Part shown: piece by piece, positions 46,961 to 61,189 of the stretch
Layout: each line of letters starts with the position of its first letter
Position numbering within the stretch: the stretch's first letter is position 1
Assembly: GCA_964623165.1 (NCBI GenBank)
Contig: CAZURN010000001.1
Span: 134-64,133, forward strand
DNA from: an uncultured Syntrophobacteraceae bacterium
GTDB lineage: Bacteria; Desulfobacterota; Syntrophobacteria; Syntrophobacterales; Syntrophobacteraceae
Direction: 5' to 3'
Length of the DNA: 64,000 nt
Program-made: the position numbers and the translations under genes
Notes under the pieces: model-generated
Told to the model about the DNA's origin: nothing
Databases searched by the model: none
What the model saw: the letters and a program-made list of their open reading frames with translations, nothing else

Positions 46961-48160
46961 TCAGCGATTGAGCAGAACCCACTTGCCCTTCTCAACCTTC
47001 ACCATCACCATTGAGTCTGTCCCCAGCCCGTTATGGTCCTCATGGGTCAAATTGTAGATTCCGCTGATCCCCACATACCCTTTGGTTTTCTCAATAGCAC
47101 TCCTCAGGGCTTCCGGGTCGGTTCCCACCTGTCGCATGGCGTTGGAAAGCAAATAGAGTGCGTCCCAGGCGTAACCGGAATGGGTGTTGATGGGATACTC
47201 CTTATCGTACTTGTATTCATCCCGATAAAGCTTAATGAAGTCGAGAATCACCGCCTTTTGGGGATCGTCTTCAGGGAGCTGGTCCGCGACCATGAGCTTG
47301 GTCGATGGCATGATGCTCCCATCGGCAGCGTCACCCGCCAGTTCGATGTACTTGGGATCAGGCTGGCCATGACACTGGATCAATGGAATTGTGAGACCCA
47401 ACTGTTTGACATTCTTGGCGACACGGGCACCGGCCGGGCCGATGGTCCAGCAGATAAGGGCCTGAGCGCCGCTTTCCCGAATCTTCACCAGCTGGGGAGT
47501 CATGTCCGTGTCCGTCACGGCAAAGGATTCCCTGGCGACGATTTCCATCCCGGATCCCGCTGCCAGCTGATCCAGTGCAGCCGCACCATCCTTTCCGAAG
47601 CCGTCCGTTGCCGTAAGGAGGGCGATCTTGGTTTGTTTCTGTGAGCAGAGGTACTCGTAAATCTTCTTGACGGCGATGGTGGTACGCTGCGGAGTCTTGA
47701 AAGTCCAGTTGAAGGGTCCAAACTTGCCCCCTGCAATGACCGGATCGCCGCCGATGGTCATCACGATGGGAATGTGGGCGGTTTCCTCGATGTACGGCTT
47801 GACGGCCATCCCCTCATCGGTTCGGGTGGGGCCGATGAGAGCCACCACCTTCTCCTTTTCCACGAGGCGTTTGGCTTCAATGAGGGCCTTGGTGGGATCG
47901 CTCTCCGTGTCTCCCCCTACGAGTTCCAGGGGCCTCTTGTTGATTCCTCCCTCCTTGTTGATCCTGTCCACCACCATCTGCGCCACCAGTTTCGTTGGAG
48001 TCCCGATGGTCGCAGCAGGGCCGGAAAGGGCGAAGAAGGCGCCGATCCTGATGGGTTCTTCGGCCAGCGAAGGTTGATTGCTCAGGAGAAGTCCCGCAGC
48101 GAGGGCCGCAATGGCCGCGAGACCAACAACAAGCCGGCAGTGCTTTCCAATGTTGCGCAT
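46961..48160 (-). CDS. ABC transporter substrate-binding protein (LivK/branched-chain-amino-acid type, family 4)
   Basis: Signal peptide MRNIGKHCRLVVGLAAIAALAAG, then IRIGAFFALSGPAA, typical of Peripla_BP_6 proteins. GGAG RBS. Confidence 0.85.
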   Translation of the reverse strand: MRNIGKHCRLVVGLAAIAALAAGLLLSNQPSLAEEPIRIGAFFALSGPAATIGTPTKLVAQMVVDRINKEGGINKRPLELVGGDTESDPTKALIEAKRLVEKEKVVALIGPTRTDEGMAVKPYIEETAHIPIVMTIGGDPVIAGGKFGPFNWTFKTPQRTTIAVKKIYEYLCSQKQTKIALLTATDGFGKDGAAALDQLAAGSGMEIVARESFAVTDTDMTPQLVKIRESGAQALICWTIGPAGARVAKNVKQLGLTIPLIQCHGQPDPKYIELAGDAADGSIMPSTKLMVADQLPEDDPQKAVILDFIKLYRDEYKYDKEYPINTHSGYAWDALYLLSNAMRQVGTDPEALRSAIEKTKGYVGISGIYNLTHEDHNGLGTDSMVMVKVEKGKWVLLNR

Positions 48161-48450
48161 GATCGCTCCTTCCCCCGAAAGTCGCCTGTTGGTTACAACC
48201 GTTGAAAGATTAGCAAACCTCAAGCCTTGTGAAACCTCCGAACGACAACGTGTCCATTTTGCAGCCGGCCATGCCTGCAGAGGTCCACATCCAGCGGTGC
48301 CTGAACCCCGGGCCAGACCCGGAGTGACGGGCATGTCTTGTTGACCATTTCATTCGACTGACCGGGGCTAAGTATTGTCCAAAACAACCTTTCGCTGTGT
48401 CGGTGAAAGTGGGTGCCCACGTGAATAGGACGCCACTGTCCCAGCGCCTC

Positions 48451-49749
48451 TTACACCCCGTTGACCCGATGGTCGAACACCCTCTTGCTCTTGCGATCGG
48501 TTCTAGGCAAGGTGCCGTAGGCCACCACCTCCACTTGGGCCCTCACCATGATCTGCTTCCTGATTTCATTGGCGATGATCTCAACGAGTTGCTTGTCGGT
48601 ATCCGGGCAGTCGTCCCCGAGGCGCTCCACCCGGACCACCATGAGATCCCGTCCGTCATCGCGCCGGTAGAGGTGAACCTGGTACTCGCTTCCCACGCAG
48701 GGTATCTGGGAAAGAAGGTGGTCGATCTGGCCCGGGTAGATATTCACGGCCCGATAGATGAACATGTCGTCGGATCGGCCAAGCAGGTGGTCGTGCCGAG
48801 GGAGCAGACAGCCGCAAGGACAAGGCTCGGGAATGAGCCTTGTCAGATCCCGGGTGCGGTAACGGATGAGCGGAGATGCCTCTTTTCTGAGGGAGGTCAC
48901 GACCATTTCTCCGATTTCCCCCGGCGGCACTGGTTCAAGGGTTTCCGGATCCAGAATCTCAAGGATGTAATAGTCGGCCCAATAGTGGACGCCTTGATGG
49001 AATCGGCACTCGAGGCCCGTTCCTGGTCCGTAGAGTTCGGTGAGGCCGGGGATGTCGTAGAGTTCCTCAACGCCCGTGATCTCCATGATGCGGCGGCGCA
49101 TACGCTGGCTGTGCCGTTCAGCGCCGAAAATGAACCGCTTCAGAGCAATCTGGTCCCGGAGTCCGCGTTCCTCGATTTCCTCGGCCATGAGGAGAGCCAT
49201 GGAAGCTGTGGCGCAAAAGACCGTGCTCTGCATGTCCACGAGCATCTGACAGTGAATTTCGGTGTTGGCTGGACCCACAGGGATGGCCATGGCTCCGAGC
49301 CTCTCACAGCCCAACTGAAAGCCCACCCCGGCAGTCCATAGCCCGTAGCCGACGGCGATTTGCACCCTGTCGTTGCGGGTCACCCCGGCCATTTCATAGC
49401 ACCGGGCAAACATGTCCGCCCAATCGTCGATGTCCTTCTGGGTGTAGCTGAGCACCTTCCGCTTGCCAGTGGTCCCTGAAGACGCGTGGATCCGCACGAT
49501 CCTCTCGAAGGGGACTGATCGGAGAGGGAACGGGTACTCCCCCTGCAGGTCCTGGGCTGTGGTGAACGGGAGGCGCCTCAGGTCGTCCATGGATCGTATA
49601 TGGTCAGGGGACACCCCAGCCTCGTCCAGCTTTTGCCTATAATAGGCGGAGTTCCCGTAACCGTGTGAAACAGTCCACTGCAGGCCCTGGAGCTGAACCG
49701 CCGCCAGTTCTCCCTGAGAAGACAGGGCCGGCATGAACGAAACACCCAT
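48451..49749 (-). CDS. Phenylacetate--CoA ligase (PaaK) family adenylate-forming enzyme
   Basis: The N-terminal pattern QLQGLQWTVSHGY..S.YYRQKLDEAGV, HASSGTTGKRKV (P-loop), and the C-terminal ACT-like end are typical of PaaK / F390 synthetase proteins. Confidence 0.85.
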   Translation of the reverse strand: MGVSFMPALSSQGELAAVQLQGLQWTVSHGYGNSAYYRQKLDEAGVSPDHIRSMDDLRRLPFTTAQDLQGEYPFPLRSVPFERIVRIHASSGTTGKRKVLSYTQKDIDDWADMFARCYEMAGVTRNDRVQIAVGYGLWTAGVGFQLGCERLGAMAIPVGPANTEIHCQMLVDMQSTVFCATASMALLMAEEIEERGLRDQIALKRFIFGAERHSQRMRRRIMEITGVEELYDIPGLTELYGPGTGLECRFHQGVHYWADYYILEILDPETLEPVPPGEIGEMVVTSLRKEASPLIRYRTRDLTRLIPEPCPCGCLLPRHDHLLGRSDDMFIYRAVNIYPGQIDHLLSQIPCVGSEYQVHLYRRDDGRDLMVVRVERLGDDCPDTDKQLVEIIANEIRKQIMVRAQVEVVAYGTLPRTDRKSKRVFDHRVNGV

Positions 49750-49890
49750 ACTGAGTCTCCTTGCAGTCTATTGGGTTGTTCAGGATGACCACGAACCTGT
49801 GGTGCCAGCGACACGAACCAGCATGCGAGTTGGGTCCGCTCCTCCATATCAAAAAGATGGGGAATTATCAAAAGACTATTCGCTTTGATA

Positions 49891-51009
49891 TCACCTTGCT
49901 CCCAGCAGAGCAAGGAGTACGCCCCCAGCCACGACGCTCGCGATCTGCCCCGCCGTGTTGGCCCCCATTGCGTGCATGAGGAGGAAATTCTCGAAGTCCT
50001 CCTCCTGTCCCATCTTCTGCACGACCCGGGCAGCCATGGGGAAAGCGCTGATGCCCGCAGCCCCGATCAGGGGATTGAAGCGACCCTTGCTCAACAGGTT
50101 GAGGAACTTGGCAAAAAGGAGTCCTGCCGCCGTGTCCAGTCCGAAGGCAAGAATACCCAAGGCGAGAATGGCGAGGGTCTGCAGCTGCAGGAAGGTGTCC
50201 GCCCGCATGGTTGAACCCACGGCCAGCCCGAGAAACAAGGTCACGATGTTTGCAATTTCATTGGAGGATGCTCCGGTCAGCCGTTCCACGACACCCGATT
50301 CCTTCAGCAGATTACCCAGCATGAGGGTCCCGATGAGGGGTATGGCCATGGGGACTAGGGTCCCCACCACGATGACCACGGCCAGGGGGAAGACAATCCG
50401 TGTCCGGCGGCTGATATGTCTTGACGTGTAAGGCATCCGGATGGAGCGCTCATTCCTCGACGTGAGGGCACGCATGATGGGTGGCTGTATGATGGGCACA
50501 AGGGACATGTAACTGTAGGCCGTCACGGCGATGGGACCCAGCATGTGGGGAGCCAGGAGATTGCTCACATAGATGGACGTGGGGCCGTCAATGGCGCCGA
50601 TGATCCCGATGGATGCCGCTTCGTTGATATCGAACCCCAGCAGTAGGGCCAGGATCAATGTCCCGAAAATTCCAAACTGACCGGCGGCTCCAAGGAGCAT
50701 CATGCGGGGGTTTTCGAGAAGGGGCCCAAAGTCCGTCATGGCCCCTATGCCGATGAAGATGAGCAGGGGAAACAATTCATTGTCCACCCCGGCCTTTTTC
50801 AACACCTCCAACATGCCGTCATCCGCAATCATGGGGGAAAGGGGAAGGTTGGCGAGGATGGCTCCAGCTCCGATGGGCAGGAGCAGCATGGGTTCGTATT
50901 CCTTGACGATGGCAAGGTATATGAGGATGCACCCCACGGCGATCATCAAGAGAGACCCAGGCGACGTGTTCAGGATGCCCTGCAGCAGTTGGTCGAAGGA
51001 AACGGTCAC
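49891..51009 (-). CDS. Sodium-ion-translocating decarboxylase, beta (membrane) subunit
   Basis: Polytopic OadB/GcdB/MmdB-like sequence (EYEPMLLLPIGAGAILANLP, IIGAIDGPTSIY). GTG start overlaps the upstream stop (GTGA). Confidence 0.9.
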   Translation of the reverse strand: MTVSFDQLLQGILNTSPGSLLMIAVGCILIYLAIVKEYEPMLLLPIGAGAILANLPLSPMIADDGMLEVLKKAGVDNELFPLLIFIGIGAMTDFGPLLENPRMMLLGAAGQFGIFGTLILALLLGFDINEAASIGIIGAIDGPTSIYVSNLLAPHMLGPIAVTAYSYMSLVPIIQPPIMRALTSRNERSIRMPYTSRHISRRTRIVFPLAVVIVVGTLVPMAIPLIGTLMLGNLLKESGVVERLTGASSNEIANIVTLFLGLAVGSTMRADTFLQLQTLAILALGILAFGLDTAAGLLFAKFLNLLSKGRFNPLIGAAGISAFPMAARVVQKMGQEEDFENFLLMHAMGANTAGQIASVVAGGVLLALLGAR

Positions 51010-51533
51010 GGTTGTCCCTCCTCGAATTTGGCGAGCACGTCGCCATAGCCCACCTGTTGCCCGGCCTGCACGCAGATCTCTGCCACGACTCCGTCCCTCG
51101 GGGATCGGATGGCATTCTTCATCTTCATGGCCTCGAGGATCACGATGGTCTGTCCATGTTTGACCGAGTCTCCCGCCTTGACTTCCACCGATTGGATCAC
51201 ACCAGGCATGGGAGCGGTCACGTCGGCCCGCAAGCCGTCGGTTGGCAGGTGCGGCTTGGAGGGTAGGGCTGGTGAAGGCGCCTTTCGCGGATGTCCCAGG
51301 ATTGCCGGGTCGGGTGGGCGATAGGTTGTGTCCGGTCGCTCCACGACGGTTTCGTCCCCTTCCCGCACCGGGATCACTGCCGGCGTGATGCGCGATGGGG
51401 CGAGATCCTCATCTGATGAGACTCGGACCTCGATGGCCTGGTCATCCAGGATCACTCGAAACCGGTCTGCTGCAAGCTCCTGCACATCGACCACGTATCC
51501 TTTGCCTTTGATTTCAAGCGTGTAACGTCTCAT
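51006..51533 (-). CDS. Biotin carboxyl carrier subunit of the decarboxylase
   Basis: C-terminal biotinyl domain with VILEAMKMKNAI (AMKM biotinylation site) and a Pro/Ala linker. ATGA overlap with the upstream gene. Confidence 0.88.
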   Translation of the reverse strand: MRRYTLEIKGKGYVVDVQELAADRFRVILDDQAIEVRVSSDEDLAPSRITPAVIPVREGDETVVERPDTTYRPPDPAILGHPRKAPSPALPSKPHLPTDGLRADVTAPMPGVIQSVEVKAGDSVKHGQTIVILEAMKMKNAIRSPRDGVVAEICVQAGQQVGYGDVLAKFEEGQP

Positions 51534-51868
51534 TTGGTCCTCCGGCTGCGATCCCAGGTGCTGTTCTGCAAAGTGCGCCCGACGCTCACCCAGCGGCTGG
51601 GCAAACTCCCCGGCTGATGCTGACGCATGGTTGGGGCGGCCTCCTTCCGAAGCACATCCCGGTGCATGGCCACGGCGACACTCACGGCGGCCAGTGCATC
51701 GGCATCAAGCCAGGAAGGGAGGGCTGGGGCGGGTTCCTGCTCCGGTTCCGGCTGAGCGCGGTCGAATCTAAGGAGCAGCGTGATGCAAAAGGCCATCACC
51801 GCCAGGAGCAGGAAAACCAGGCCCATTCCAAACACGGTGAGTTGGATTCCGATATTGAGCGATTCCAC
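51530..51868 (-). CDS. OadG-family small membrane subunit of the decarboxylase
   Basis: Single N-terminal TM helix (IQLTVFGMGLVFLLLAVMAFCITLLL). GTG start with a GGAGGA RBS. Confidence 0.7.
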   Translation of the reverse strand: MESLNIGIQLTVFGMGLVFLLLAVMAFCITLLLRFDRAQPEPEQEPAPALPSWLDADALAAVSVAVAMHRDVLRKEAAPTMRQHQPGSLPSRWVSVGRTLQNSTWDRSRRTK

Positions 51869-51908
51869 GGGATTCCTCCGATGATTTCCTAGGTTTTCAG
51901 CGTGCCTC

Positions 51909-53453
51909 TTACATGGGCATCAAGCCGTGCTTTTTGGGCGGGTTTTGCTTGACTTTCGTGCGAAGCACTTCAAGGGCGCGAATGAGACGCGGCCGTGTCT
52001 CCCTGGGTTCGATCACCTCATCGATTTGCCCCACGTTGGCCGCGATGTATGGATTGAAGAACTTGGCCCGGTATTCCTCGGCGAATTGGCGCTCCAGGGC
52101 TGCGGGGTCCTCGCTCGCTGCAAGTTCCCGCTTGCGCAGGATACGGACCGCCCCTTCGGCCCCCATGACCGCGATCTGGGCCGAAGGCCATGCGAAGGCC
52201 AGGTCGCAGCGCATCTGGCGAGAGCTCATGGCGATGTACGCACCCCCGACGGCCTTCCTTGTGACGATGGAAATCTTGGGCACCGTGGCCTCGCAGTAGG
52301 CGTAGATGACCTTGGCTCCGTGGCGGATGATGCCGTAATGCTCCTGATCGAGACCCGGCAGGTATCCGGGAGTGTCCACGAAGGTGATCAGGGGAATGTT
52401 GAACGCATCGCAAATGCGCACGAAGCGGGCGATCTTGTCACTCGAATCGATATCCAGGACTCCCGCCAGATGTGCTGGCTGGTTGGCCACTATCCCCACG
52501 CAGTACCCATCGAGCCGGGCAAAGCCCACGAGAGCGTTCCGGGCATAGTATGGGTGAACCTGAAAGAAACTGCCCCGGTCCACGATGGCTTCGATGACTT
52601 CGTGCATATCGTACGGATCGTTCTCGTCCTGGGGCACAATGGAGTTCAGGGATTCCTCCATTCGATCCGGTGAATCGTATCGCGCAACCTGGGGGGGATC
52701 TTCTGCATTGTTCTGAGGCAGGTAGCTCAAGAGCAGCTTCACCAGTTCAATGGCTTGGTGATCGCTCTCCGCGAGCAAATGGGCGACCCCACTCTTGCTG
52801 TTGTGCACCAGGGTGCCGCCGAGATCACTGAAATTCACCTCCTCGCCGGTAACCGCCTTGATGACGTCGGGGCCCGTGATGAACATGTAGCTGATGCCCC
52901 GGGCCATGATGACGAAGTCCGTGAGGGCAGGGGAGTACACCGATCCCCCGGCACACGGGCCCAGCATCACCGAGATCTGCGGGATGACCCCGGACGAGAG
53001 GACATTTCGAACGAACACCTCTCCATATGCAGCTAGGCTTCGAAATCCTTCCTGAATGCGGGCTCCACCCGAGTCATTGAGCCCGATGATGGGAATCCCG
53101 CTTTCCAGGGCCACGTCCTGGATGCGACAGATCTTGTTCGCCTGCACTTCGGAAAAGGATCCCCCCACCACGGTGAAATCCTGGGCGAACACGGCGACTC
53201 GCCTGCCATTGATCTTGCCGAATCCCGTCACCACCCCGTCGCCAGGAAATCGGTGCTGATCCATGCCGAAGTCGGTGATGTTGTGGGTGGCCAAGGCCCC
53301 GAGTTCCTGGAATGTGTTCTCATCGAGGAGCAGCCCGAGCCGTTCCCGGGCTGTCATCTTACCCCGCGCGTGCTGCTGTTCGATGCGTTCGGCACCACCG
53401 CCCTGCATTGCCCGTTCACGCATTTCACGTAGTGTCTGCAAATACTTGGTCAT
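51909..53453 (-). CDS. Acyl-CoA carboxyltransferase (methylmalonyl-/glutaconyl-CoA decarboxylase alpha subunit type)
   Basis: RIEQQHARGKMTARERL, FAQDFTVVGGSFSE and GLNDSGGARIQEG motifs of the PccB/MmdA family. Start at ATG 53453 with a GAGGAG RBS. Confidence 0.9.
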   Translation of the reverse strand: MTKYLQTLREMRERAMQGGGAERIEQQHARGKMTARERLGLLLDENTFQELGALATHNITDFGMDQHRFPGDGVVTGFGKINGRRVAVFAQDFTVVGGSFSEVQANKICRIQDVALESGIPIIGLNDSGGARIQEGFRSLAAYGEVFVRNVLSSGVIPQISVMLGPCAGGSVYSPALTDFVIMARGISYMFITGPDVIKAVTGEEVNFSDLGGTLVHNSKSGVAHLLAESDHQAIELVKLLLSYLPQNNAEDPPQVARYDSPDRMEESLNSIVPQDENDPYDMHEVIEAIVDRGSFFQVHPYYARNALVGFARLDGYCVGIVANQPAHLAGVLDIDSSDKIARFVRICDAFNIPLITFVDTPGYLPGLDQEHYGIIRHGAKVIYAYCEATVPKISIVTRKAVGGAYIAMSSRQMRCDLAFAWPSAQIAVMGAEGAVRILRKRELAASEDPAALERQFAEEYRAKFFNPYIAANVGQIDEVIEPRETRPRLIRALEVLRTKVKQNPPKKHGLMPM

Positions 53454-53538
53454 CTCTCTTCTCCTCGCCACCAGTTGGAAAGTGCCCCACAGCTTGGGCG
53501 CAATGCGACCATGAAGGCGGCACTGCCGAGTGCTCAAT

Positions 53539-53604
53539 GGTTCGAACTTCCATGTCCACCCGCCCCGAGTTCTGGGATGGCGGGCGGACATGGAAGTTCG
53601 AACC
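53539..53604. promoter_or_regulatory. 26-bp inverted repeat (25 of 26 pairs) with a 14-nt spacer, upstream of the decarboxylase operon
   Basis: GGTTCGAACTTCCATGTCCACCCGCC (53539-53564) pairs with GGCGGGCGGACATGGAAGTTCGAACC (53579-53604), with a single A/C mismatch. Lies 86-151 nt upstream of the alpha-subunit start on the minus strand. Confidence 0.6.
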
Positions 53605-54440
53605 AGGGCTGTTCTATGCAAAAGACCAAAGAGCCAGAGGGCCAATTTCGGATTGGTTCATGGAATCTGAAACCGGCTATTTCGTTAAAATGCCATCAAA
53701 CAGCATCCGTTGTGAATCAAATTCATGGGGTGCCCTGTGTCAAACTCAAGAACCCAGGTCCGAAGAATGGTCGGGCGGGGTCACGAATGCCATGGGGGAG
53801 GAAAAAGGTGAAGTGACAAGAGGTCTCTTCCGATACTATCTGTGGGTAGTCAAACATTCAAACCAACCCTATTCCTCTTCGCCGGAGCCCGGGACAGCCC
53901 CTCCCGGGCTCCTTCCGTTACGCCTCAAGGCAGTCATGCTCTCCAAAGATCAATACTGATGACATCGAGGAAATACTTGATTGCGGAGAGTCATGGGTTG
54001 ATAATGATATCAAATCACGGCGGAAATCACCCTGGCGAGATATCCGTGTACTGTCATGATCATGCAATCCCAATCCAATGGCACAGCCTGCCCGGGCCCT
54101 TGAGGGTGCGCGTTGGTTGTTCTGACCCGGCGAGACCCCCGCGGATGTATTGATCCCGGTTCTGTCAATGAGTCTGCCCTCTTCTTTACGGCCGCGCGAT
54201 GACAATTCACCTGAATTTTCCCCGGAACACGCTTCTGGTGGGGAGTGGGGCTCATCGTGCCACTACCAAGGTTCGCAAGATGGAGTGAGGGGGGAGTTCA
54301 GTCTTCATTTCGGGGTTGACCCCAGATTCAGGGAGCATCTGAAACGTCCGGATTTCGTCGGGGTGATGGTGTTCTGTGGGAATTTGCATGCAGTTTTCCG
54401 TGGAGTTGCCGCAGTCGGCGCACCATAAAGGAGAGCAACA

Positions 54441-56921
54441 ATGGGTGAGGTGACACTAGAAGACATCACTCTGGCGGAATATGGCATGGAGCGTCTGCCG
54501 CTACTCCAGAGACTGCGGAGAGAGCTCATGGCGACGAAACCGGAGGTCTGCATCGAACGGGCGAGATTTGTGACACGCTACCTTGCGGACATGTCCAAAA
54601 CCGGCGACCCCATCCAAACGCGATATGCACACGCAGTGAATTACTTCCTGGCCAACAAGGCTCCAAAGTTCTTTGGGGACAACCTGCTTGCGGGCACGAC
54701 CACCTCCAAGCCGTACGGGGCCCCCGTGTATCCGGAGTTCACGGGAATGACCATATGGCCCGAGCTGGACACGATCAGCACCAGGGAAAAGAACCCTCTC
54801 CTCCTATCCAAAAGCGATGCGGAAGAGCTCAACCTGAGAATCTACCCCTACTGGATGGACCGTAATATTCTCGAATATACCCGAAGCAAATTTGGTTATC
54901 CCGAATCCATGAAGCTCTTTGAACGGATCGTCTTCTTCCTTGCCGGCAAGGCCGGCGCATTGTCCCATACAGTCCCCGGCTACAGGCGGGTGTTGAGACA
55001 GGGGCTCGAGTCCATCATCGAGGAGGCGGCGGAGCGTGAGGCACAGTGTGTGGGAAGGGGTGTCACGGCCAAGGAGGAGAGGCGAAAGGCGGAATTCTAT
55101 CAGGCAGTGCAGATCGCCCTGCGTGGAGTCATTGCCTATGCCCAAAATCTTGCTGGGGAAGCAGAACGGCGGGCCTTGAAGGAGAAGGACCTGGCCAGAC
55201 AAGAGAATTTCACAAGGATGGCGGAGGTTTGCCGCCAAGTTCCCGCCAAGGGAGCCCGTACTTTCAGGGAGGCTGTCAATTCCATCTGGATCATGCAGGT
55301 CGCGGTCCACGCCGAAAACATCAACATGGCCATGAGCCCCGGGCGCCTGGACCAGGTCCTGTATGAATACTACCGTCGCGACATGGACGCAGGCAGACTG
55401 AGCCTGGAAGAAGCCATGGATTTGGTAGGGTGTCTTTGGATCAAATTCAACGACAACGCGAACCTAGTCCCCGAAACGGCCGAGGAACTCTTCGGCGGTG
55501 CTGGAACGGTCCCTGCGGTGACAGTTGGGGGAGTGGATGAGAAGGGTGAAGACGCAGTCAACGACCTGACATACATCATGCTCAGGGTCACGGAACTGCT
55601 CAAAACCCGTGACCCCAGCCTCAACGCCCGGTACCACTATGCGAAGAACCCTGAAGCCTACCGGGATCGGCTGGCCCGTGCGATCGAGGAGACGAAGTCT
55701 GTCCCGGCCGTCTACAACGATGTGGCGGCCATCAAGACCTTGGAGAACCAGGGAACAAGTCTGGAACATGCCAGGGACTATGCCATCATCGGATGCGTGG
55801 AACTGGCGTCGACAGGCAGGAGTTACGATGCCTCCAGTTCCATCATGCTGAACCTTGTCTCGGCCCTTGAACTGACCCTGCACAACGGGAAGCGCCCCGT
55901 GACGGGAGATGAGCAGATCGGTCCAAGGACAGGCGATCCGTCACAGTTCAAGAGCTTCGTGGAGTTCTGGGAGGCTTTCAAAGGGCAGCTTCGGTGGATC
56001 ATCGGGCAGGCTGTCGAGCTGAACGAATGTTTCGGACGAGCTTACCAGGAAATCATGCCGTCGCCCCTGCTTTCCTCGCTCTTTGAAGGACCCATGGAGA
56101 GCGGAGACGACCTGATTTTCGGCGGGGCCCTTTACAATGCTTCGGGGGCCACCCATATAGGATTTGCCGACACGGTTGATTCGCTGAATGCCATCGAGAC
56201 GGCGGTCTTTTTAGACAGGAAATGCACATTCCAAGAGTTGCTGCAGGCTCTCCAGAATAATTTCAAGGGCCACGAAAAACTCCACGCATATCTCGTCCAC
56301 AGGACTCCCAAGTATGGCACCGAAGAACCCATCGCCATCAGGAACTCACAGAACTTGATCCGTCTTCTGTACGAAACCTACCAGGCTCATGTCAATTACA
56401 GGGGAGGCAAATACCGCCCGGCGTTCTGGACCATGACCAATCATGCCGGCCAGGGGAAGCTCTGCGGAGCCCTTCCCAACGGAAGAAAGGCGGGCAAGGT
56501 GCTCGCCAGCGGAATCACCCCCGTTTCTCAGGCAGCCGGAGATTTGGCCGCCTGCTTCAAGGCGGTTGGCAGCCTGGATCCCCTTTGCATTCCGGGCGGC
56601 GAAGCACTCAACCTCAAGTATCCGACCATCGAGAATGGCGAGGACTTAAAACGTTTCGGGCAAGCCATCGAAGCGTATTTCAGGATCGGTGGGCTCCATG
56701 TACAGTTCAACATCATGTCTTACGAAGATCTCATCGACGCCAAGAAATGTCCTGAGAAACACAGGGAACTCCTCGTACGGGTCTCCGGCTATTCGGCCTA
56801 TTTCAAGGATCTCAACGAGGCCATGAAAGACGAGATCATCACCAGGACCGCCTACAACCTTCGCACAGGGAAGGCCGTACCGTTCCCCGAAAGGTACAGG
56901 TCCATGCTGGCTTGTGAATGA
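54441..56921 (+). CDS. Glycyl radical enzyme, PFL2/glycerol-dehydratase-like family, substrate unknown
   Basis: 826 aa. Glycyl radical fingerprint RVSGYSAYF about 45 residues from the C-terminus. Cys loop AIIGCVELASTG. AAGGAG RBS. Confidence 0.92.
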   Translation: MGEVTLEDITLAEYGMERLPLLQRLRRELMATKPEVCIERARFVTRYLADMSKTGDPIQTRYAHAVNYFLANKAPKFFGDNLLAGTTTSKPYGAPVYPEFTGMTIWPELDTISTREKNPLLLSKSDAEELNLRIYPYWMDRNILEYTRSKFGYPESMKLFERIVFFLAGKAGALSHTVPGYRRVLRQGLESIIEEAAEREAQCVGRGVTAKEERRKAEFYQAVQIALRGVIAYAQNLAGEAERRALKEKDLARQENFTRMAEVCRQVPAKGARTFREAVNSIWIMQVAVHAENINMAMSPGRLDQVLYEYYRRDMDAGRLSLEEAMDLVGCLWIKFNDNANLVPETAEELFGGAGTVPAVTVGGVDEKGEDAVNDLTYIMLRVTELLKTRDPSLNARYHYAKNPEAYRDRLARAIEETKSVPAVYNDVAAIKTLENQGTSLEHARDYAIIGCVELASTGRSYDASSSIMLNLVSALELTLHNGKRPVTGDEQIGPRTGDPSQFKSFVEFWEAFKGQLRWIIGQAVELNECFGRAYQEIMPSPLLSSLFEGPMESGDDLIFGGALYNASGATHIGFADTVDSLNAIETAVFLDRKCTFQELLQALQNNFKGHEKLHAYLVHRTPKYGTEEPIAIRNSQNLIRLLYETYQAHVNYRGGKYRPAFWTMTNHAGQGKLCGALPNGRKAGKVLASGITPVSQAAGDLAACFKAVGSLDPLCIPGGEALNLKYPTIENGEDLKRFGQAIEAYFRIGGLHVQFNIMSYEDLIDAKKCPEKHRELLVRVSGYSAYFKDLNEAMKDEIITRTAYNLRTGKAVPFPERYRSMLACE

Positions 56922-57441
56922 CGCGACAGAACTGCGATGCCCCGTGCCGGATGACGTGGACCGGGTGATGGAGGATGTTGTGCCGAAAACAATTCTGGAC
57001 CAGGTGTTGTCAAGGGATGCCGGGTTGAAGCTGGTGGCCGAGAGATTTCAGTACTGCCTGGGTTCCGATCTGGCTGAGGGATTTCTTCAGATCCTGCTCA
57101 GCCTCATGAGCGTGTTGTTCCTGATAAGCAGGAACTTCAGGCGGAACATCAGGGACTTCACCGGGCGCTACGTCTTCAGGGACAGGGGTAACCGTATTGA
57201 GACCGGTGTGATCTTCGAGGGTGGCCGAATGCACGTGAAGGACGGCAAGCTTGAACACCCGAATGTGACAGTCGTTTTCAGGGATTCAAGAGCCCTGATG
57301 AGCTACCTCCTCTCCCCCAAGCCGGATATCCTGGGCTCACTCCTGAGACAGGACGTGACGGTGGAAGGCAACTTCAATTACTTGTACAAATTCGCATACA
57401 TGGCGAATCGACTCAAACAAATGGTCACAGGAGGCCCGTGA
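56914..57441 (+). CDS. SCP2-like small accessory protein with an N-terminal hydrophobic helix
   Basis: 175 aa, overlapping the GRE stop by 8 nt. The hydrophobic segment FLQILLSLMSVLFLI is followed by an SCP2-type pattern (GVIFEGGRMHVKDGKLEHPNVTVVFRDSRALMSYLLSPKPDILGSLLRQDVTVEGNFNYLYKF). The fold call is by eye only. Confidence 0.55.
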   Translation: MNDATELRCPVPDDVDRVMEDVVPKTILDQVLSRDAGLKLVAERFQYCLGSDLAEGFLQILLSLMSVLFLISRNFRRNIRDFTGRYVFRDRGNRIETGVIFEGGRMHVKDGKLEHPNVTVVFRDSRALMSYLLSPKPDILGSLLRQDVTVEGNFNYLYKFAYMANRLKQMVTGGP

Positions 57442-58310
57442 TCCAGTCCGACGCGTTGCCGCTCATCTTCGACATCCGCAGGTTCGCTCTGGATGATGGC
57501 CCGGGGATTCGAACCACAGTGTTTCTGAAAGGCTGTCCCCTTGCCTGCCGCTGGTGCCACAATCCCGAATCCATCCGCATCGGCAGGGACATCTCGTTCC
57601 AGCCGGAGTTGTGCATTGAGTGCGGAGAGTGCGAATTGGCCTGTCCCGAGGGAGCCATACGGCGTGAGATGCCCATGCGCATTGCACGGGACAGGTGCTC
57701 CATGTGTGGGGTGTGCGCGGAGGCATGTCCTTCCACTGCGCTGAAAGTGATCGGAAGGTATGTGGAGGCCGGGGAGCTTGTGGAACTGCTTCTCAGGGAT
57801 CGGGTCCTTTTCGACACCTCCGGGGGAGGAGTGACCTTCTCGGGTGGAGAGCCGACCTTGCACTTGCCTTACCTGATCAGGGTGTGCAGGGAGCTCAAGA
57901 AAGAGGACGTCCATACCGCCGTTCAGACGTCGGGTATGTTTGACCTCGATGCCTTCGAGAGGGAACTGCTCCCGTCGCTGGACCTCATCTTTTATGATCT
58001 CAAACTCATGGATTCGTTGGCGCACGATCAATTCACCGGATTGGGCAATGAGCGTATCGTTTACAACTTCTCAGCCTTGAGCAGGCACAGCCGGCATAAG
58101 ATCATCCCCAGGACGCCGCTTGTGCCAGGCATCACCGACACGGGAGGAAACCTGGAAGCACTGTCACAATTCCTCCGTGCGCTTGGCCACGATCGTCATG
58201 TACTTTTGCCTTACAATTCCGGAGGGGCATCAAGACGGCATTTCGTCGGATCGGGTCCTCAGGGTGCCGGAGACCCCAGGGGAAGGAGAGCTGAATGGCG
58301 GGTGACGTGA
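57438..58310 (+). CDS. Glycyl-radical enzyme activating protein (radical SAM)
   Basis: CPLACRWCHNPE (CX3CX2C), two ferredoxin clusters (CIECGECELACPEG and CSMCGVCAEACPST), GGVTFSGGEP, and LLPYNSGG. GTG start overlaps the upstream stop by 4 nt. Confidence 0.9.
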   Translation: MIQSDALPLIFDIRRFALDDGPGIRTTVFLKGCPLACRWCHNPESIRIGRDISFQPELCIECGECELACPEGAIRREMPMRIARDRCSMCGVCAEACPSTALKVIGRYVEAGELVELLLRDRVLFDTSGGGVTFSGGEPTLHLPYLIRVCRELKKEDVHTAVQTSGMFDLDAFERELLPSLDLIFYDLKLMDSLAHDQFTGLGNERIVYNFSALSRHSRHKIIPRTPLVPGITDTGGNLEALSQFLRALGHDRHVLLPYNSGGASRRHFVGSGPQGAGDPRGRRAEWRVT

Positions 58311-59299
58311 ACCGTTCGATCAACCCATCCCAGGAGCGGCTGTACTCTAAGATCACCGACCTTGAGCATGCGCTCTCGATCCTAAGATCCGGCCACCTCG
58401 ATCCCACTCAGGTGAAGGTGGCTGAGTCCTGTGACAAGTACATCGCCATGTGCTGGAACTACATGAACCGCAGGCGAAAGCACTCGCATCTCGTGTGGGA
58501 GTTTCTACATCGGGTCGATGAAAATCTGATCCTTCTCATGCCAGAGGAAGAATTCACGAGCAAGGCGACTGAAGTGGCCGTGTTCTTCGACATGAACATA
58601 CAGGACGAAAAACTCCGCAAGGCGTGGCTCGGGGAGGAGGGAATACTGAGACACGCGGCGGAACGCATCAGCAAGGGATGGAGCAGCGCCCAGGACAGGC
58701 ACGTGGTGAAGGATGCGCTGCAGATCGTCAATGAGCAGATGGACCGCTCGTTCTGGCAGCTTTCCATGAACACGATCACAAGCGTTGTGAGTGGGTGCAT
58801 GCTGGGCATTCTTGTGCTCCTCTTCTGGTGGTGCTGCTTGAACGATTTCAACAGCTTCGGTGACGGATCTCTTCAGGCGAACTTGGCGGACCTTCTGGTC
58901 TTTGGCCTCATGGGTGCCTATCTTGGAAACCTCCTCACCTGGGAGGGGTTCCTCTACGTCAGGGGAGCCCCGTTCTGGAGATACTTCCTGCACAATACCC
59001 TTTCGAAGCCCATTCTGGGCTCTTTTGCGGCCGTTTTCATATTCATGATCGAGAAAACGAAAACCATATTCTCCATCTCGGTGGTACAGCAGGCAGGTCA
59101 GGCTGCCGAAAATGCTGCAGCGCAGATCGTGAACTTCAACGTCAGTTCCGCGGCATTACCCTACGCATATGGGCTCCTGGCCATCGTTTCCGGATTTGCA
59201 GCGGAAAAGGTCCTGCGGTCAATGATCGATGCGGTCTTGAAAAGGCTTGAAGAGCGAGCCGAAAAAAGAAAGACCAGCGGAGGGAAGAGCGAATCCTGA
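58295..59299 (+). CDS. Hypothetical membrane protein (soluble helical N-domain plus about 4 TM helices)
   Basis: 334 aa, overlapping the activase 3' end by 16 nt. TM candidates are ITSVVSGCMLGILVLLFWWCCL, LADLLVFGLMGAYLGNLL, ILGSFAAVFIFMI and YAYGLLAIVSGFAA. No family recognised. Confidence 0.6.
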   Translation: MAGDVNRSINPSQERLYSKITDLEHALSILRSGHLDPTQVKVAESCDKYIAMCWNYMNRRRKHSHLVWEFLHRVDENLILLMPEEEFTSKATEVAVFFDMNIQDEKLRKAWLGEEGILRHAAERISKGWSSAQDRHVVKDALQIVNEQMDRSFWQLSMNTITSVVSGCMLGILVLLFWWCCLNDFNSFGDGSLQANLADLLVFGLMGAYLGNLLTWEGFLYVRGAPFWRYFLHNTLSKPILGSFAAVFIFMIEKTKTIFSISVVQQAGQAAENAAAQIVNFNVSSAALPYAYGLLAIVSGFAAEKVLRSMIDAVLKRLEERAEKRKTSGGKSES

Positions 59300-59359: not shown

Positions 59360-60628
59360 TCAGCCGCGGAGGGCATGGTGGCCGCTTTCATGCACGGAGT
59401 CATCGGGACCGAAAACTGCGAATCCCGCAGTGCCGATGACCCCGAAGATGGTGGCCGCGATAAGATTCGTCTGCGGGCTCATCTCCCAAAGAAGTGCTCC
59501 CCCAAAGGCAGCAGCTGAGACGAAAACATCACGGACAAGGTAGTACAGGCCAAACATGCCTGCTTTGCAGTTCGCTGGGGCAAGATCCATGATGAGGGCT
59601 TTGCGGGTGGGTTCGCCGAACTCCTTGAGTCCCCGCACCATGAATGCCAGGACCAGCCACTCGAAGGAATGGCTGAACAGGAGCACTAGAGGAAAAATCG
59701 TGAAGAAACCGAAGGTTATGAGGACAAAAGGCTTTTTTGTGCTGCGATCTGCAAGATACGCGACGGGGATGTAGACCAGCACGGCCGTGGCCATTTCGAT
59801 GCTCGTGAGCAGACCAAACTGAAGGGCCGACACAGGTTGGGATATCGTCTTCATGCACCAGACCACCACAAATGCGTAAGGGATTTGCTCGCAGAACCGC
59901 ACAAGGATGTCGGTGACCAGCAATCCCTTCATGGCCGGCGTCATCAAGCCAAGCATTCTGATGGGGTTCTTTTCCGGCGTGAATCGGCATGTGTCATCAA
60001 GGGAACGGGATCCGGACGGATCGTCTTCGATCATGTGCTGCTGAAGTACCAGGGCCACCAAGGCCATGAGCAATGCGGCCGCGAAAGCCAGCCGCACCCC
60101 GTCCCGCTCCCCCCAGGTGCCGATGAATATACCTCCGACCACTGGGCCAAGGGCCATGGGAAACCGTCGCACCAGTGAGTGCATGCTCACCCCCATGGTG
60201 CGCTTGTTTTGCGGCAAGACCCTGTACATGAGGCTCATGGTCGCCGGAAGGGAGATGGCAGACCAGGAAATGAACAGCACTGCCCCTGCCAGGACGGCCT
60301 TCCAGTTTGGAATGAGGATCACCAAGGCGAAACCGACCATGGCCACGACATTGAAAGCTGCCAGGGCACGCTTTGTGCCGATGCGGTCCGAAAGGTAGCC
60401 TCCCGGAAAGGAGTAGAGGGCGGAGAGCAGATTATCCATGGCCTGCAGAAGGCCGATAACGAGAGTCCCACCTCCCAGGGCCATGATGTAGATGGGCAGG
60501 AACCGCTCGGCCATGCGCTCCCCAATGCCCACCAGCACTACCATGGCCAGCACTCCCACGGTGCTTCGTTGCAGAGCGAGAAAACCGGATATCCTGGATG
60601 TGCGAGTGGTGGCGGAACCTTGGGGCAT
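59360..60628 (-). CDS. MFS transporter
   Basis: 12-TM-like profile with the MFS loop GGYLSDRIGTKR. ATG at 60628 is preferred (AAGGGA RBS, no overlap). The ORF-track GTG at 60676 is the alternative. Confidence 0.85.
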   Translation of the reverse strand: MPQGSATTRTSRISGFLALQRSTVGVLAMVVLVGIGERMAERFLPIYIMALGGGTLVIGLLQAMDNLLSALYSFPGGYLSDRIGTKRALAAFNVVAMVGFALVILIPNWKAVLAGAVLFISWSAISLPATMSLMYRVLPQNKRTMGVSMHSLVRRFPMALGPVVGGIFIGTWGERDGVRLAFAAALLMALVALVLQQHMIEDDPSGSRSLDDTCRFTPEKNPIRMLGLMTPAMKGLLVTDILVRFCEQIPYAFVVVWCMKTISQPVSALQFGLLTSIEMATAVLVYIPVAYLADRSTKKPFVLITFGFFTIFPLVLLFSHSFEWLVLAFMVRGLKEFGEPTRKALIMDLAPANCKAGMFGLYYLVRDVFVSAAAFGGALLWEMSPQTNLIAATIFGVIGTAGFAVFGPDDSVHESGHHALRG

Positions 60629-60642
60629 GATGGCTGGTTCCC

Positions 60643-61080
60643 TTATGATTCGGTCCTGGCCATCTCGAGACGACACCAGGCGTAGAGGGCGTCATACACT
60701 TCGAATTGCCGTTCCAGGTTTTCCGAGTCATCCGGAAAGCGCAGGCTGTAGCCCACGGCGATGGCCTCAAGGCCGGCCGCCAGTGGATCGGCGTCCAGCC
60801 GATTGGTGTCCGCCGCGTTCACGATCCTGGCCATTCGCAACAGTGCCTTGTCTTTCAATTCGTATGCCCGGATGATCACCTCGAACGTGCACAGGTCGTC
60901 CCGGTGGTGCAGTTCCGCACCGGGCGTGTCGAAGGGAATCGCGCCCTCCCTTCTCGCAACTTTCATCACCTGGTTCCTGGGAACGAAGAGAAACTCAGCA
61001 TCTGAATCGACAAACCGGGTGATCAGCCAAGGGCAGGCCACCCGGTCGACATGCACGTGGGAACGGGTTATCCATTTCAT
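60643..61080 (-). CDS. Chromate-resistance (ChrB C-terminal / Chrome_Resist) domain protein
   Basis: MKWITRSHVHVDRVACPWLITRFVDSDAEFLFVP ... CTFEVII is typical of that domain. AAGGAG RBS before the ATG at 61080. Confidence 0.75.
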   Translation of the reverse strand: MKWITRSHVHVDRVACPWLITRFVDSDAEFLFVPRNQVMKVARREGAIPFDTPGAELHHRDDLCTFEVIIRAYELKDKALLRMARIVNAADTNRLDADPLAAGLEAIAVGYSLRFPDDSENLERQFEVYDALYAWCRLEMARTES

Positions 61081-61189
61081 GGGGCATCTCCTTCTTGATA
61101 TCGCGTGGCTCCTGGCACAATTTGAGTCTTTGTCCGCAGACAGGGACATGACCTGGACTGAGCTCCATGGAATTTCTCCTCAGTCCCAG

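Follow-up and report, generated by a model that had tools for sequence, protein, structure and literature searches.

A run of four genes was characterized within a 64,000-nucleotide (nt) stretch of DNA from an uncultured Syntrophobacteraceae bacterium (GenBank assembly GCA_964623165.1, contig CAZURN010000001.1; the whole stretch is referred to below as the window). All four lie on the plus strand. The first encodes a glycyl radical enzyme (GRE) of 826 amino acids (aa; positions 54441 to 56921, ATG start), recognized by the Pfam PFL-like and Gly_radical domains, and is followed by a gene for a 175-aa accessory protein (56914 to 57441, GTG start) that is predicted by AlphaFold and Foldseek to have an SCP2 fold, a gene for a 290-aa radical SAM glycyl-radical activating enzyme (57438 to 58310, GTG start; TIGR02494) and a gene for a 334-aa membrane protein (58295 to 59299, ATG start), which contains hydrophobic segments and matches no named family. 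The open reading frames (ORFs) overlap successively by 8, 4 and 16 nt, as reported in a preliminary description of the locus.

The starts of the activase and membrane-protein genes are well supported because ribosome-binding sites precede them: AGGAGG, read directly from the DNA, upstream of the activase GTG at 57438, which overlaps the stop of the small gene as GTGA, and GGAAGGAGAG, a strong Shine-Dalgarno sequence, upstream of the ATG at 58295. The first overlap depends on the GTG at 56914 and is uncertain, since no clear ribosome-binding site was found in the DNA upstream of it and most homologues of the small protein begin near Met19 of the window protein; this alternative start, at 56968, would give a product of ~157 aa. 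The N-terminal extension is kept in the closest relatives, and was modelled by AlphaFold as disordered (first 24 residues). The activase scored 270.6 bits against TIGR02494 (glycyl-radical-enzyme activase; curated cut-off 174.35), which bears out its original assignment, and contains the Pfam domains Radical_SAM, Fer4 and Fer4_12, a CX3CX2C motif (CPLACRWC) and two ferredoxin-type 4Fe-4S cysteine motifs. No RNA family was found in the window by Rfam, promoter and terminator scans of the window were no better than those of shuffled sequence, and none of the proteins studied matched models of anti-phage defence.

One genome per species was scanned with a profile of the small protein, yielding 115 loci, 80 of which were kept and searched with the window proteins by tblastn. 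The order GRE, small protein, activase on one strand was found in 72 of the 80 species-level loci, while of the remaining eight, four are cut by contig ends and, in the other four, the order is changed or the GRE or activase match is missing or incomplete. The small protein adjoins the GRE and/or the activase in all 80 loci, the GRE orthologues are 56–87% identical to the window GRE, and in most loci the stop of the small gene lies −16 to +30 nt from where the activase match begins. With 72 of 80 loci sharing it, the gene arrangement is far beyond chance. Conservation across genomes, earlier named as a check on the four-gene arrangement, holds for the GRE, the small protein and the activase, but not for the fourth gene: the conserved core consists of three genes, not four.

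This trio is distributed over Desulfobacterota, Nitrospirota, Deferribacteres and Acidobacteriota. Hosts among the Desulfobacterota are Syntrophus, Smithella, Syntrophorhabdaceae, Syntrophobacteraceae, Desulfobulbia, Geobacter and Desulfobacteraceae, including the N47 and TRIP cultures; the others are Nitrospirota (including Thermodesulfovibrio), one Deferribacteres metagenome-assembled genome (MAG) and one Holophagaceae MAG. Contigs L011 and L012 of the Nitrospirota MAG M_MetaBat.107 hold two copies of the trio, which are either paralogues or the product of a mixed bin.

In five genomes (L010, L029, L058, L059 and L078) the GRE and the small protein form one reading frame, joined by a Pro/Ala-rich linker of ~30–50 residues. 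Fused proteins are likewise present among the 50%-identity representatives of the small-protein family (P0497, 1022 aa, with PFL-like plus Gly_radical; P0487, with Gly_radical plus SCP2). The constant adjacency of the two proteins, together with fusions that arose independently several times, argues strongly for a joint function and makes it probable that they bind each other. Judged from these sequence patterns, the small protein is a dedicated partner of the GRE and most likely a bound subunit of it.

The GRE matched PF02901 (PFL-like; E = 7e-168) and PF01228 (Gly_radical; E = 5e-16), and both motifs by which it had been recognized are present: RVSGYSAYF near the C-terminus, with the radical site Gly783, and the thiyl loop GCVEL, with Cys452 and, two residues on, Glu454. 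In an alignment of 64 orthologues, Cys452, Glu454, His176 and Gly783 are invariant. A Glu two residues after the catalytic Cys defines the Cys-x-Glu eliminase/isomerase class (PMC13450708, a review of 2026), and this Glu is the invariant Glu454 here. In glycerol dehydratase, Glu435 is the base and His164 the acid that expels the hydroxyl (PMC13450708); HMMER alignments placed Glu454 and His176 on this acid/base pair, which is thus retained in the window GRE. The position of His176 is also occupied by His in PFL2 and 9rco, as opposed to Asp216 in CutC and Glu in HpyG. For the remainder of the pocket, the presumed glycerol contacts of glycerol dehydratase, His281, Ser282, Tyr339, Asp447 and Tyr640, correspond to Met296, Ala297, Val357, Ser466 and Trp663; of these, Ser282, Tyr339, Asp447 and Tyr640 are thus replaced by Ala, Val, Ser and Trp. 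Met296, Ala297, Ser466 and Trp663 are invariant, and Val357 is Ala in 2 of the 64 orthologues. The family appears to combine the catalytic residues of a dehydratase with a distinct, less polar pocket, a combination that fits C–O elimination from a substrate whose remainder is hydrophobic and is no proof of it.

The same fold and CXE loop are found in glycerol and propanediol dehydratases, HypD, HpyG/HpzG, CutC, IslA, HpsG and YbiW/PflD, and an adjacent activase with two ferredoxin motifs is another feature that the window locus shares with the Cys-x-Glu eliminases and isomerases. In NCBIfam, the GRE fell below every equivalog and subfamily cut-off: the HypD, CutC, HpsG, HpfG, indoleacetate decarboxylase and HPA decarboxylase equivalogs gave 230–464 bits against cut-offs of 1000–1150 (HypD 464, HpsG 454 and CutC 430 bits, with cut-offs of 1000–1100), and TIGR01774, the PFL2/glycerol-dehydratase subfamily, gave 580 bits, below its cut-off of 678. 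The best relative in the PDB was PFL2 of Archaeoglobus fulgidus (AF1449; 2F3O) at 452 bits, all others scoring ≤407, with CutC, HpyG, 9rco and glycerol dehydratase at ~400 bits each. PFL2 resembles the window GRE in its CVE loop and at the positions of His176, Ala297 and Ser466, but differs in having Asn for Val357 and Tyr for Trp663, and its match is far weaker than those between orthologues. PFL2 is described as a GRE without an assigned function, over which opinion has been split for two decades, with glycerol dehydratase and alkylsuccinate synthase as the two candidates (PMC13450708); it has been proposed as a methylalkylsuccinate synthase. By these scores, the GRE lies outside every characterized clade, in keeping with what had been supposed.

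The small protein has no Pfam or NCBIfam match, even at E ≤ 1. Its family has at least 209 homologues, mostly of 153 aa, and comprises 378 clusters at 50% identity; mean column identity is 59%, with 27 invariant positions, and the conserved motifs include LLSPKPDIL and NLNYLYKF. When an AlphaFold model built from 39 sequences (pLDDT 79, pTM 0.74) was compared with the PDB by Foldseek, 36 matches had E ≤ 1e-3 and the top 44 were all SCP2 domains, among them UbiJ-SCP2, AF1534, the C-terminal domains of alkylsulfatases, and sterol carrier proteins of animals, insects and yeast. The best match was UbiJ-SCP2 (E = 1.7e-5), the TM-score normalized to the target reached up to 0.69, and the structural alignments to UbiJ/UbiT and alkylsulfatase SCP2 domains had 9–18% identity. 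In single-sequence Pfam scans, PF02036 (SCP2) was weakly matched by 14 of the 39 homologues (best E = 0.008) and Alkyl_sulf_C by 4 of the 39, while two fused representatives scored ~22 bits against PF02036 (cut-off 21.3). The SCP2-like character proposed earlier is thus recovered in the model, by which the small protein is predicted to have an SCP2 fold.

The hydrophobic helix noted earlier in this protein is not an obvious membrane anchor. Segment 52–72 is strongly hydrophobic in the window protein, and was modelled with confidence as a helix within the folded domain; its counterpart in most homologues includes the charged residues Glu, Lys and Asp. From the model, the helix more likely lines a cavity than anchors the protein. 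An SCP2-like domain was also observed at the N-terminus of larger proteins, namely P0367 (766 aa), where it is accompanied by pentapeptide repeats, and P0452 (461 aa) and P0470 (295 aa), where it is accompanied by unannotated regions; a few members of the family may have left the GRE context.

A large GRE with a small accessory protein encoded in the same operon is likewise found in benzylsuccinate synthase, methylalkylsuccinate synthase and 4-hydroxyphenylacetate decarboxylase, and the hydrophobic substrate channel of benzylsuccinate synthase is where its small subunit is located. The catalytic class of these multi-subunit GREs differs from that of the window GRE. Their small subunits are HiPIP-like Fe-S proteins or rubredoxin-like, the only two kinds given in the review (PMC13450708), which agrees with the earlier statement that known GRE small subunits are not SCP2 proteins; here, in contrast, the predicted fold is SCP2 and no cysteine is conserved, and therefore the small protein is not an Fe-S small subunit. 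None of the Cys-x-Glu eliminases and isomerases named above is known to have an SCP2-fold accessory subunit, and no description of a GRE paired with an SCP2 protein was found in the literature searched. Two candidate papers, on limonene and on benzene, deal with other enzymes. The SCP2 module of UbiJ holds the hydrophobic substrate for partner enzymes of ubiquinone biosynthesis, and in alkylsulfatases (SdsA1 and Pisa1) a C-terminal SCP2 domain fused to the catalytic domain recruits alkyl chains. The GRE-SCP2 fusions parallel the latter arrangement, although the partner enzymes of UbiJ/UbiT and of the alkylsulfatase domains are unrelated to GREs.

Taken together, we put at roughly 0.5 the probability that the trio comprises a dehydratase-type GRE and an SCP2-fold subunit that takes up and presents an amphipathic or hydrophobic, hydroxylated substrate; we infer that the GRE and the small protein physically bind, that the reaction is an elimination and that the substrate is hydrophobic. 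In the proposed mechanism, the activase would make the glycyl radical on Gly783, from which it would pass to Cys452, and the resulting thiyl radical would take a hydrogen from the carbon that bears the hydroxyl or neighbours it. With Glu454 as base and His176 as acid, the two residues would then help the neighbouring leaving group depart, by chemistry identical to that of the B12-independent glycerol and propanediol dehydratases. The SCP2-fold subunit would take up the substrate and present it at the substrate channel of the GRE. Given a largely non-polar pocket (Met296, Ala297, Val357, Ser466 and Trp663) and a partner with a lipid-carrier fold, an amphipathic or hydrophobic alcohol or diol is the most likely substrate, for example a long-chain or lipid-linked vicinal diol. 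The broader proposal, of an undescribed and widespread GRE subclass of anaerobic Desulfobacterota, Nitrospirota and allies that would carry out radical C–O or C–X elimination on a lipid or other hydrophobic molecule handed over by a dedicated SCP2-fold subunit, is put forward more tentatively.

Several points weigh against this reading of the trio. The window small protein itself has no SCP2 match at the sequence level in Pfam at E ≤ 1, and, apart from His, Cys and Glu, the assignment of pocket positions depends on the residue numbering presumed for glycerol dehydratase. The equivalent of Asp447 of glycerol dehydratase is Ser466, and the chemistry may differ from diol dehydration. Furthermore, the genes around the trio vary between genomes and give no pathway, and the phospholipase-C-like character of DUF6765, the commonest of them (see below), was not confirmed by fold. 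Finally, the SCP2 fold could be purely structural here.

This last point can be developed into an alternative that we regard as possible, if rather unlikely: the SCP2-fold protein would be a structural or regulatory small subunit that carries no substrate, the substrate being small and soluble. It would stabilize the enzyme, gate its channel, or influence how the glycyl radical is installed and protected, as has been suggested for the beta and gamma subunits of benzylsuccinate synthase. Such a role is consistent with the fusions, in which the C-terminal glycyl-radical domain is followed immediately by the small protein, with the overlap of the small gene and the activase gene, and with the high conservation of the small protein, which suggests a fixed protein-protein interface; the closest characterized enzymes, moreover, all use small soluble molecules, and no settled role has yet been given to the known GRE small subunits (PMC13450708). 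However, those known subunits are Fe-S or rubredoxin-like proteins and the small protein has no conserved cysteine, its top structural matches are SCP2 domains that bind lipids or alkyl chains, and the GRE pocket positions are mostly non-polar, all of which argue against this alternative.

The fourth gene had been taken to encode a dedicated four-transmembrane (TM) protein of no recognized family. The latter part stands: the 334-aa protein matched no Pfam or NCBIfam family above threshold, and its own family, of at least 125 clusters, has no Pfam model. It consists of an N-terminal helical domain of ~150 aa, in which the motifs W..LHRVDE and VNEQMDRxFW are conserved in the family, four hydrophobic segments and a charged C-terminal helix; by hydropathy one segment is strongly and three are moderately hydrophobic, a profile compatible with four TM helices and not proof of them. 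PF20303 (YLATT), a three-TM module, was weakly matched by 23 of 34 homologues (best E = 7e-4), with no match in the window protein. A 190-aa membrane protein found in Nitrospirota was considered as a homologue and rejected (hhalign probability 0.2%).

Were the four genes a dedicated system, the 334-aa protein might anchor the enzyme to the membrane, or import or extract its substrate. The 16-nt overlap and the strong ribosome-binding site inside the activase gene speak for this, as does the same gene order in two close relatives: L009, where the GRE is 87% identical to that of the window and the upstream genes are the same, and L093, which is 79% identical and from the same lineage. Distant homologues of the 334-aa protein also lie further downstream within the extended clusters of L022 and L078, and another stands beside a decayed GRE locus (L006/L007). 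The distribution of the protein, however, disfavours such a system from the side of both the GRE and the protein itself. Among the 80 GRE loci a homologue directly follows the activase only in L009, and 76 have none within 8 kb, profile search included. Likewise, among 46 metagenome loci retrieved with a profile of the membrane protein, only L093 has an activase upstream, and none of five further genome or contig contexts (L006/L007, L008 and L090-L092) does. Homologues stand alone among unrelated neighbours in Crenobacter, Gallionella and other genomes, and YLATT, to which many are weakly similar, is a TM module unrelated to GREs. A four-gene system is therefore improbable, and a role as dedicated GRE partner is rejected for the 334-aa protein, which is a lineage-specific addition, co-translated with the activase here and outside the conserved unit. 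A loose, recurrent link of its family with genes that flank the trio was observed in L006/L007, L022, L078, L105, L110 and L127.

Least probable by far is a fumarate-adding, alkylsuccinate-synthase-like enzyme for hydrocarbons, to which the SCP2 protein would deliver alkanes: PFL2, the best PDB match, has been proposed as a methylalkylsuccinate synthase, and several hosts (Smithella, Syntrophus, Desulfatiglans, N47 and TRIP cultures) have ties to hydrocarbon degradation, but the catalytic motifs disfavour it, as Cys-x-Glu and the His176 acid mark eliminases and isomerases and not X-succinate synthases (PMC13450708), MasD (225 bits) and TutD (203 bits) scored lowest among GRE structures apart from HPAD, the small protein lacks a conserved cysteine, and no HiPIP-like small subunits or succinate-pathway genes were found nearby.

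Clustering of ORFs over the 80 loci revealed four recurrent sets of neighbours, none of which is present in the window. The commonest, DUF6765 (PF20551), was found in 42 of the 80, directly after the activase or before the GRE (for example L078:9392-10465, L025:4319-5413 and L043:9371-10432). Its invariant residues are H6, D35, H79, H141, D145, H149, H194 and D202, and 8 of 18 members weakly matched PF00882 (zinc phospholipase C). A confident AlphaFold model (pLDDT 84) had no Foldseek match in the PDB below E = 1, and a profile search of PDB sequences found nothing. The DUF6765 family, with more than 2,291 homologues, is far wider than the trio and includes members from Gammaproteobacteria and Mariprofundus. 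DUF6765 thus provides a lead towards lipid metabolism, not evidence for it.

A repeat protein of one to three ~300-aa units also lies beside the trio in 42 of the 80 loci (for example L042:1496-3457, L070:2872-5289 and, on the minus strand, L024:9530-10567). It carries the motifs LNYRW, GLYLG and FGYFxLMDDxW, the member in L042 has a lipoprotein-type signal, and no Pfam or PDB relative of it was found. A papain-like peptidase is near the trio in 9 of the 80 loci. In Nitrospirota and a few other loci, the GRE is immediately preceded, in the same orientation, by a gene for a multi-TM protein of ~190 aa with a conserved GWPAWE motif, often as a tandem pair (L011:4155-4715, L013:1741-3016, L014:2347-3536, L017:4278-5483 and L045:3670-4236). 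In a Thermodesulfobacteriota genome (CP113000), a remnant of the GRE N-terminus (residues 1–107, 51% identity) was observed at L006/L007:4839-5159, beside a truncated DUF6765, a homologue of the 334-aa protein, a papain-like peptidase and the repeat protein; by sequence it looks like a decayed copy of an extended locus.

In the window itself, mutually overlapping genes for an MFS transporter and a ChrB_C protein (59360-60676 and 60643-61149, both on the minus strand) are convergent to the trio. The same pair flanks the trio in two Nitrospirota loci, at L011:1422-3063 (68 and 78% identity) and L013:1-1606 (67 and 74%), and may be loosely associated with the trio. On the other side, positions 46961-53645 (minus strand) encode a periplasmic solute-binding protein, an AMP-forming enzyme resembling phenylacetate-CoA ligase, and a sodium-pumping biotin decarboxylase of four genes (carboxyltransferase, gamma-like subunit, biotin carrier and beta subunit). 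The ligase, carboxyltransferase and beta subunit are 94–96% identical in L009, the only one of the 80 loci that matched. No microcompartment shell-protein Pfam family was found in the genes of L001/L004, in the scanned window neighbours or in the scanned recurrent neighbour families.

To our knowledge, the GREs known so far act on small soluble metabolites or on hydrocarbons. The GRE fold and the Cys-x-Glu class are already known; what is new here is a clade of GREs whose accessory subunit is of a new type, and a conserved, sometimes fused subunit with a lipid-carrier fold would be a third kind of GRE architecture. If the proposed function is true, the enzyme would be without precedent among GREs both in acting on lipid-like substrates and in having a lipid-carrier subunit, and would extend anaerobic radical chemistry to amphipathic or lipid substrates, for which no such chemistry is on record; it would also offer a clue to what the related Archaeoglobus PFL2 does, a question long debated. 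Compact and with clear limits, the three-gene unit lends itself to direct tests. Many uncultured sulfate reducers, syntrophs and Nitrospirota of sediments, vents and digesters carry members of its family, and the reaction of the trio could matter there for anaerobic lipid turnover or membrane remodelling.

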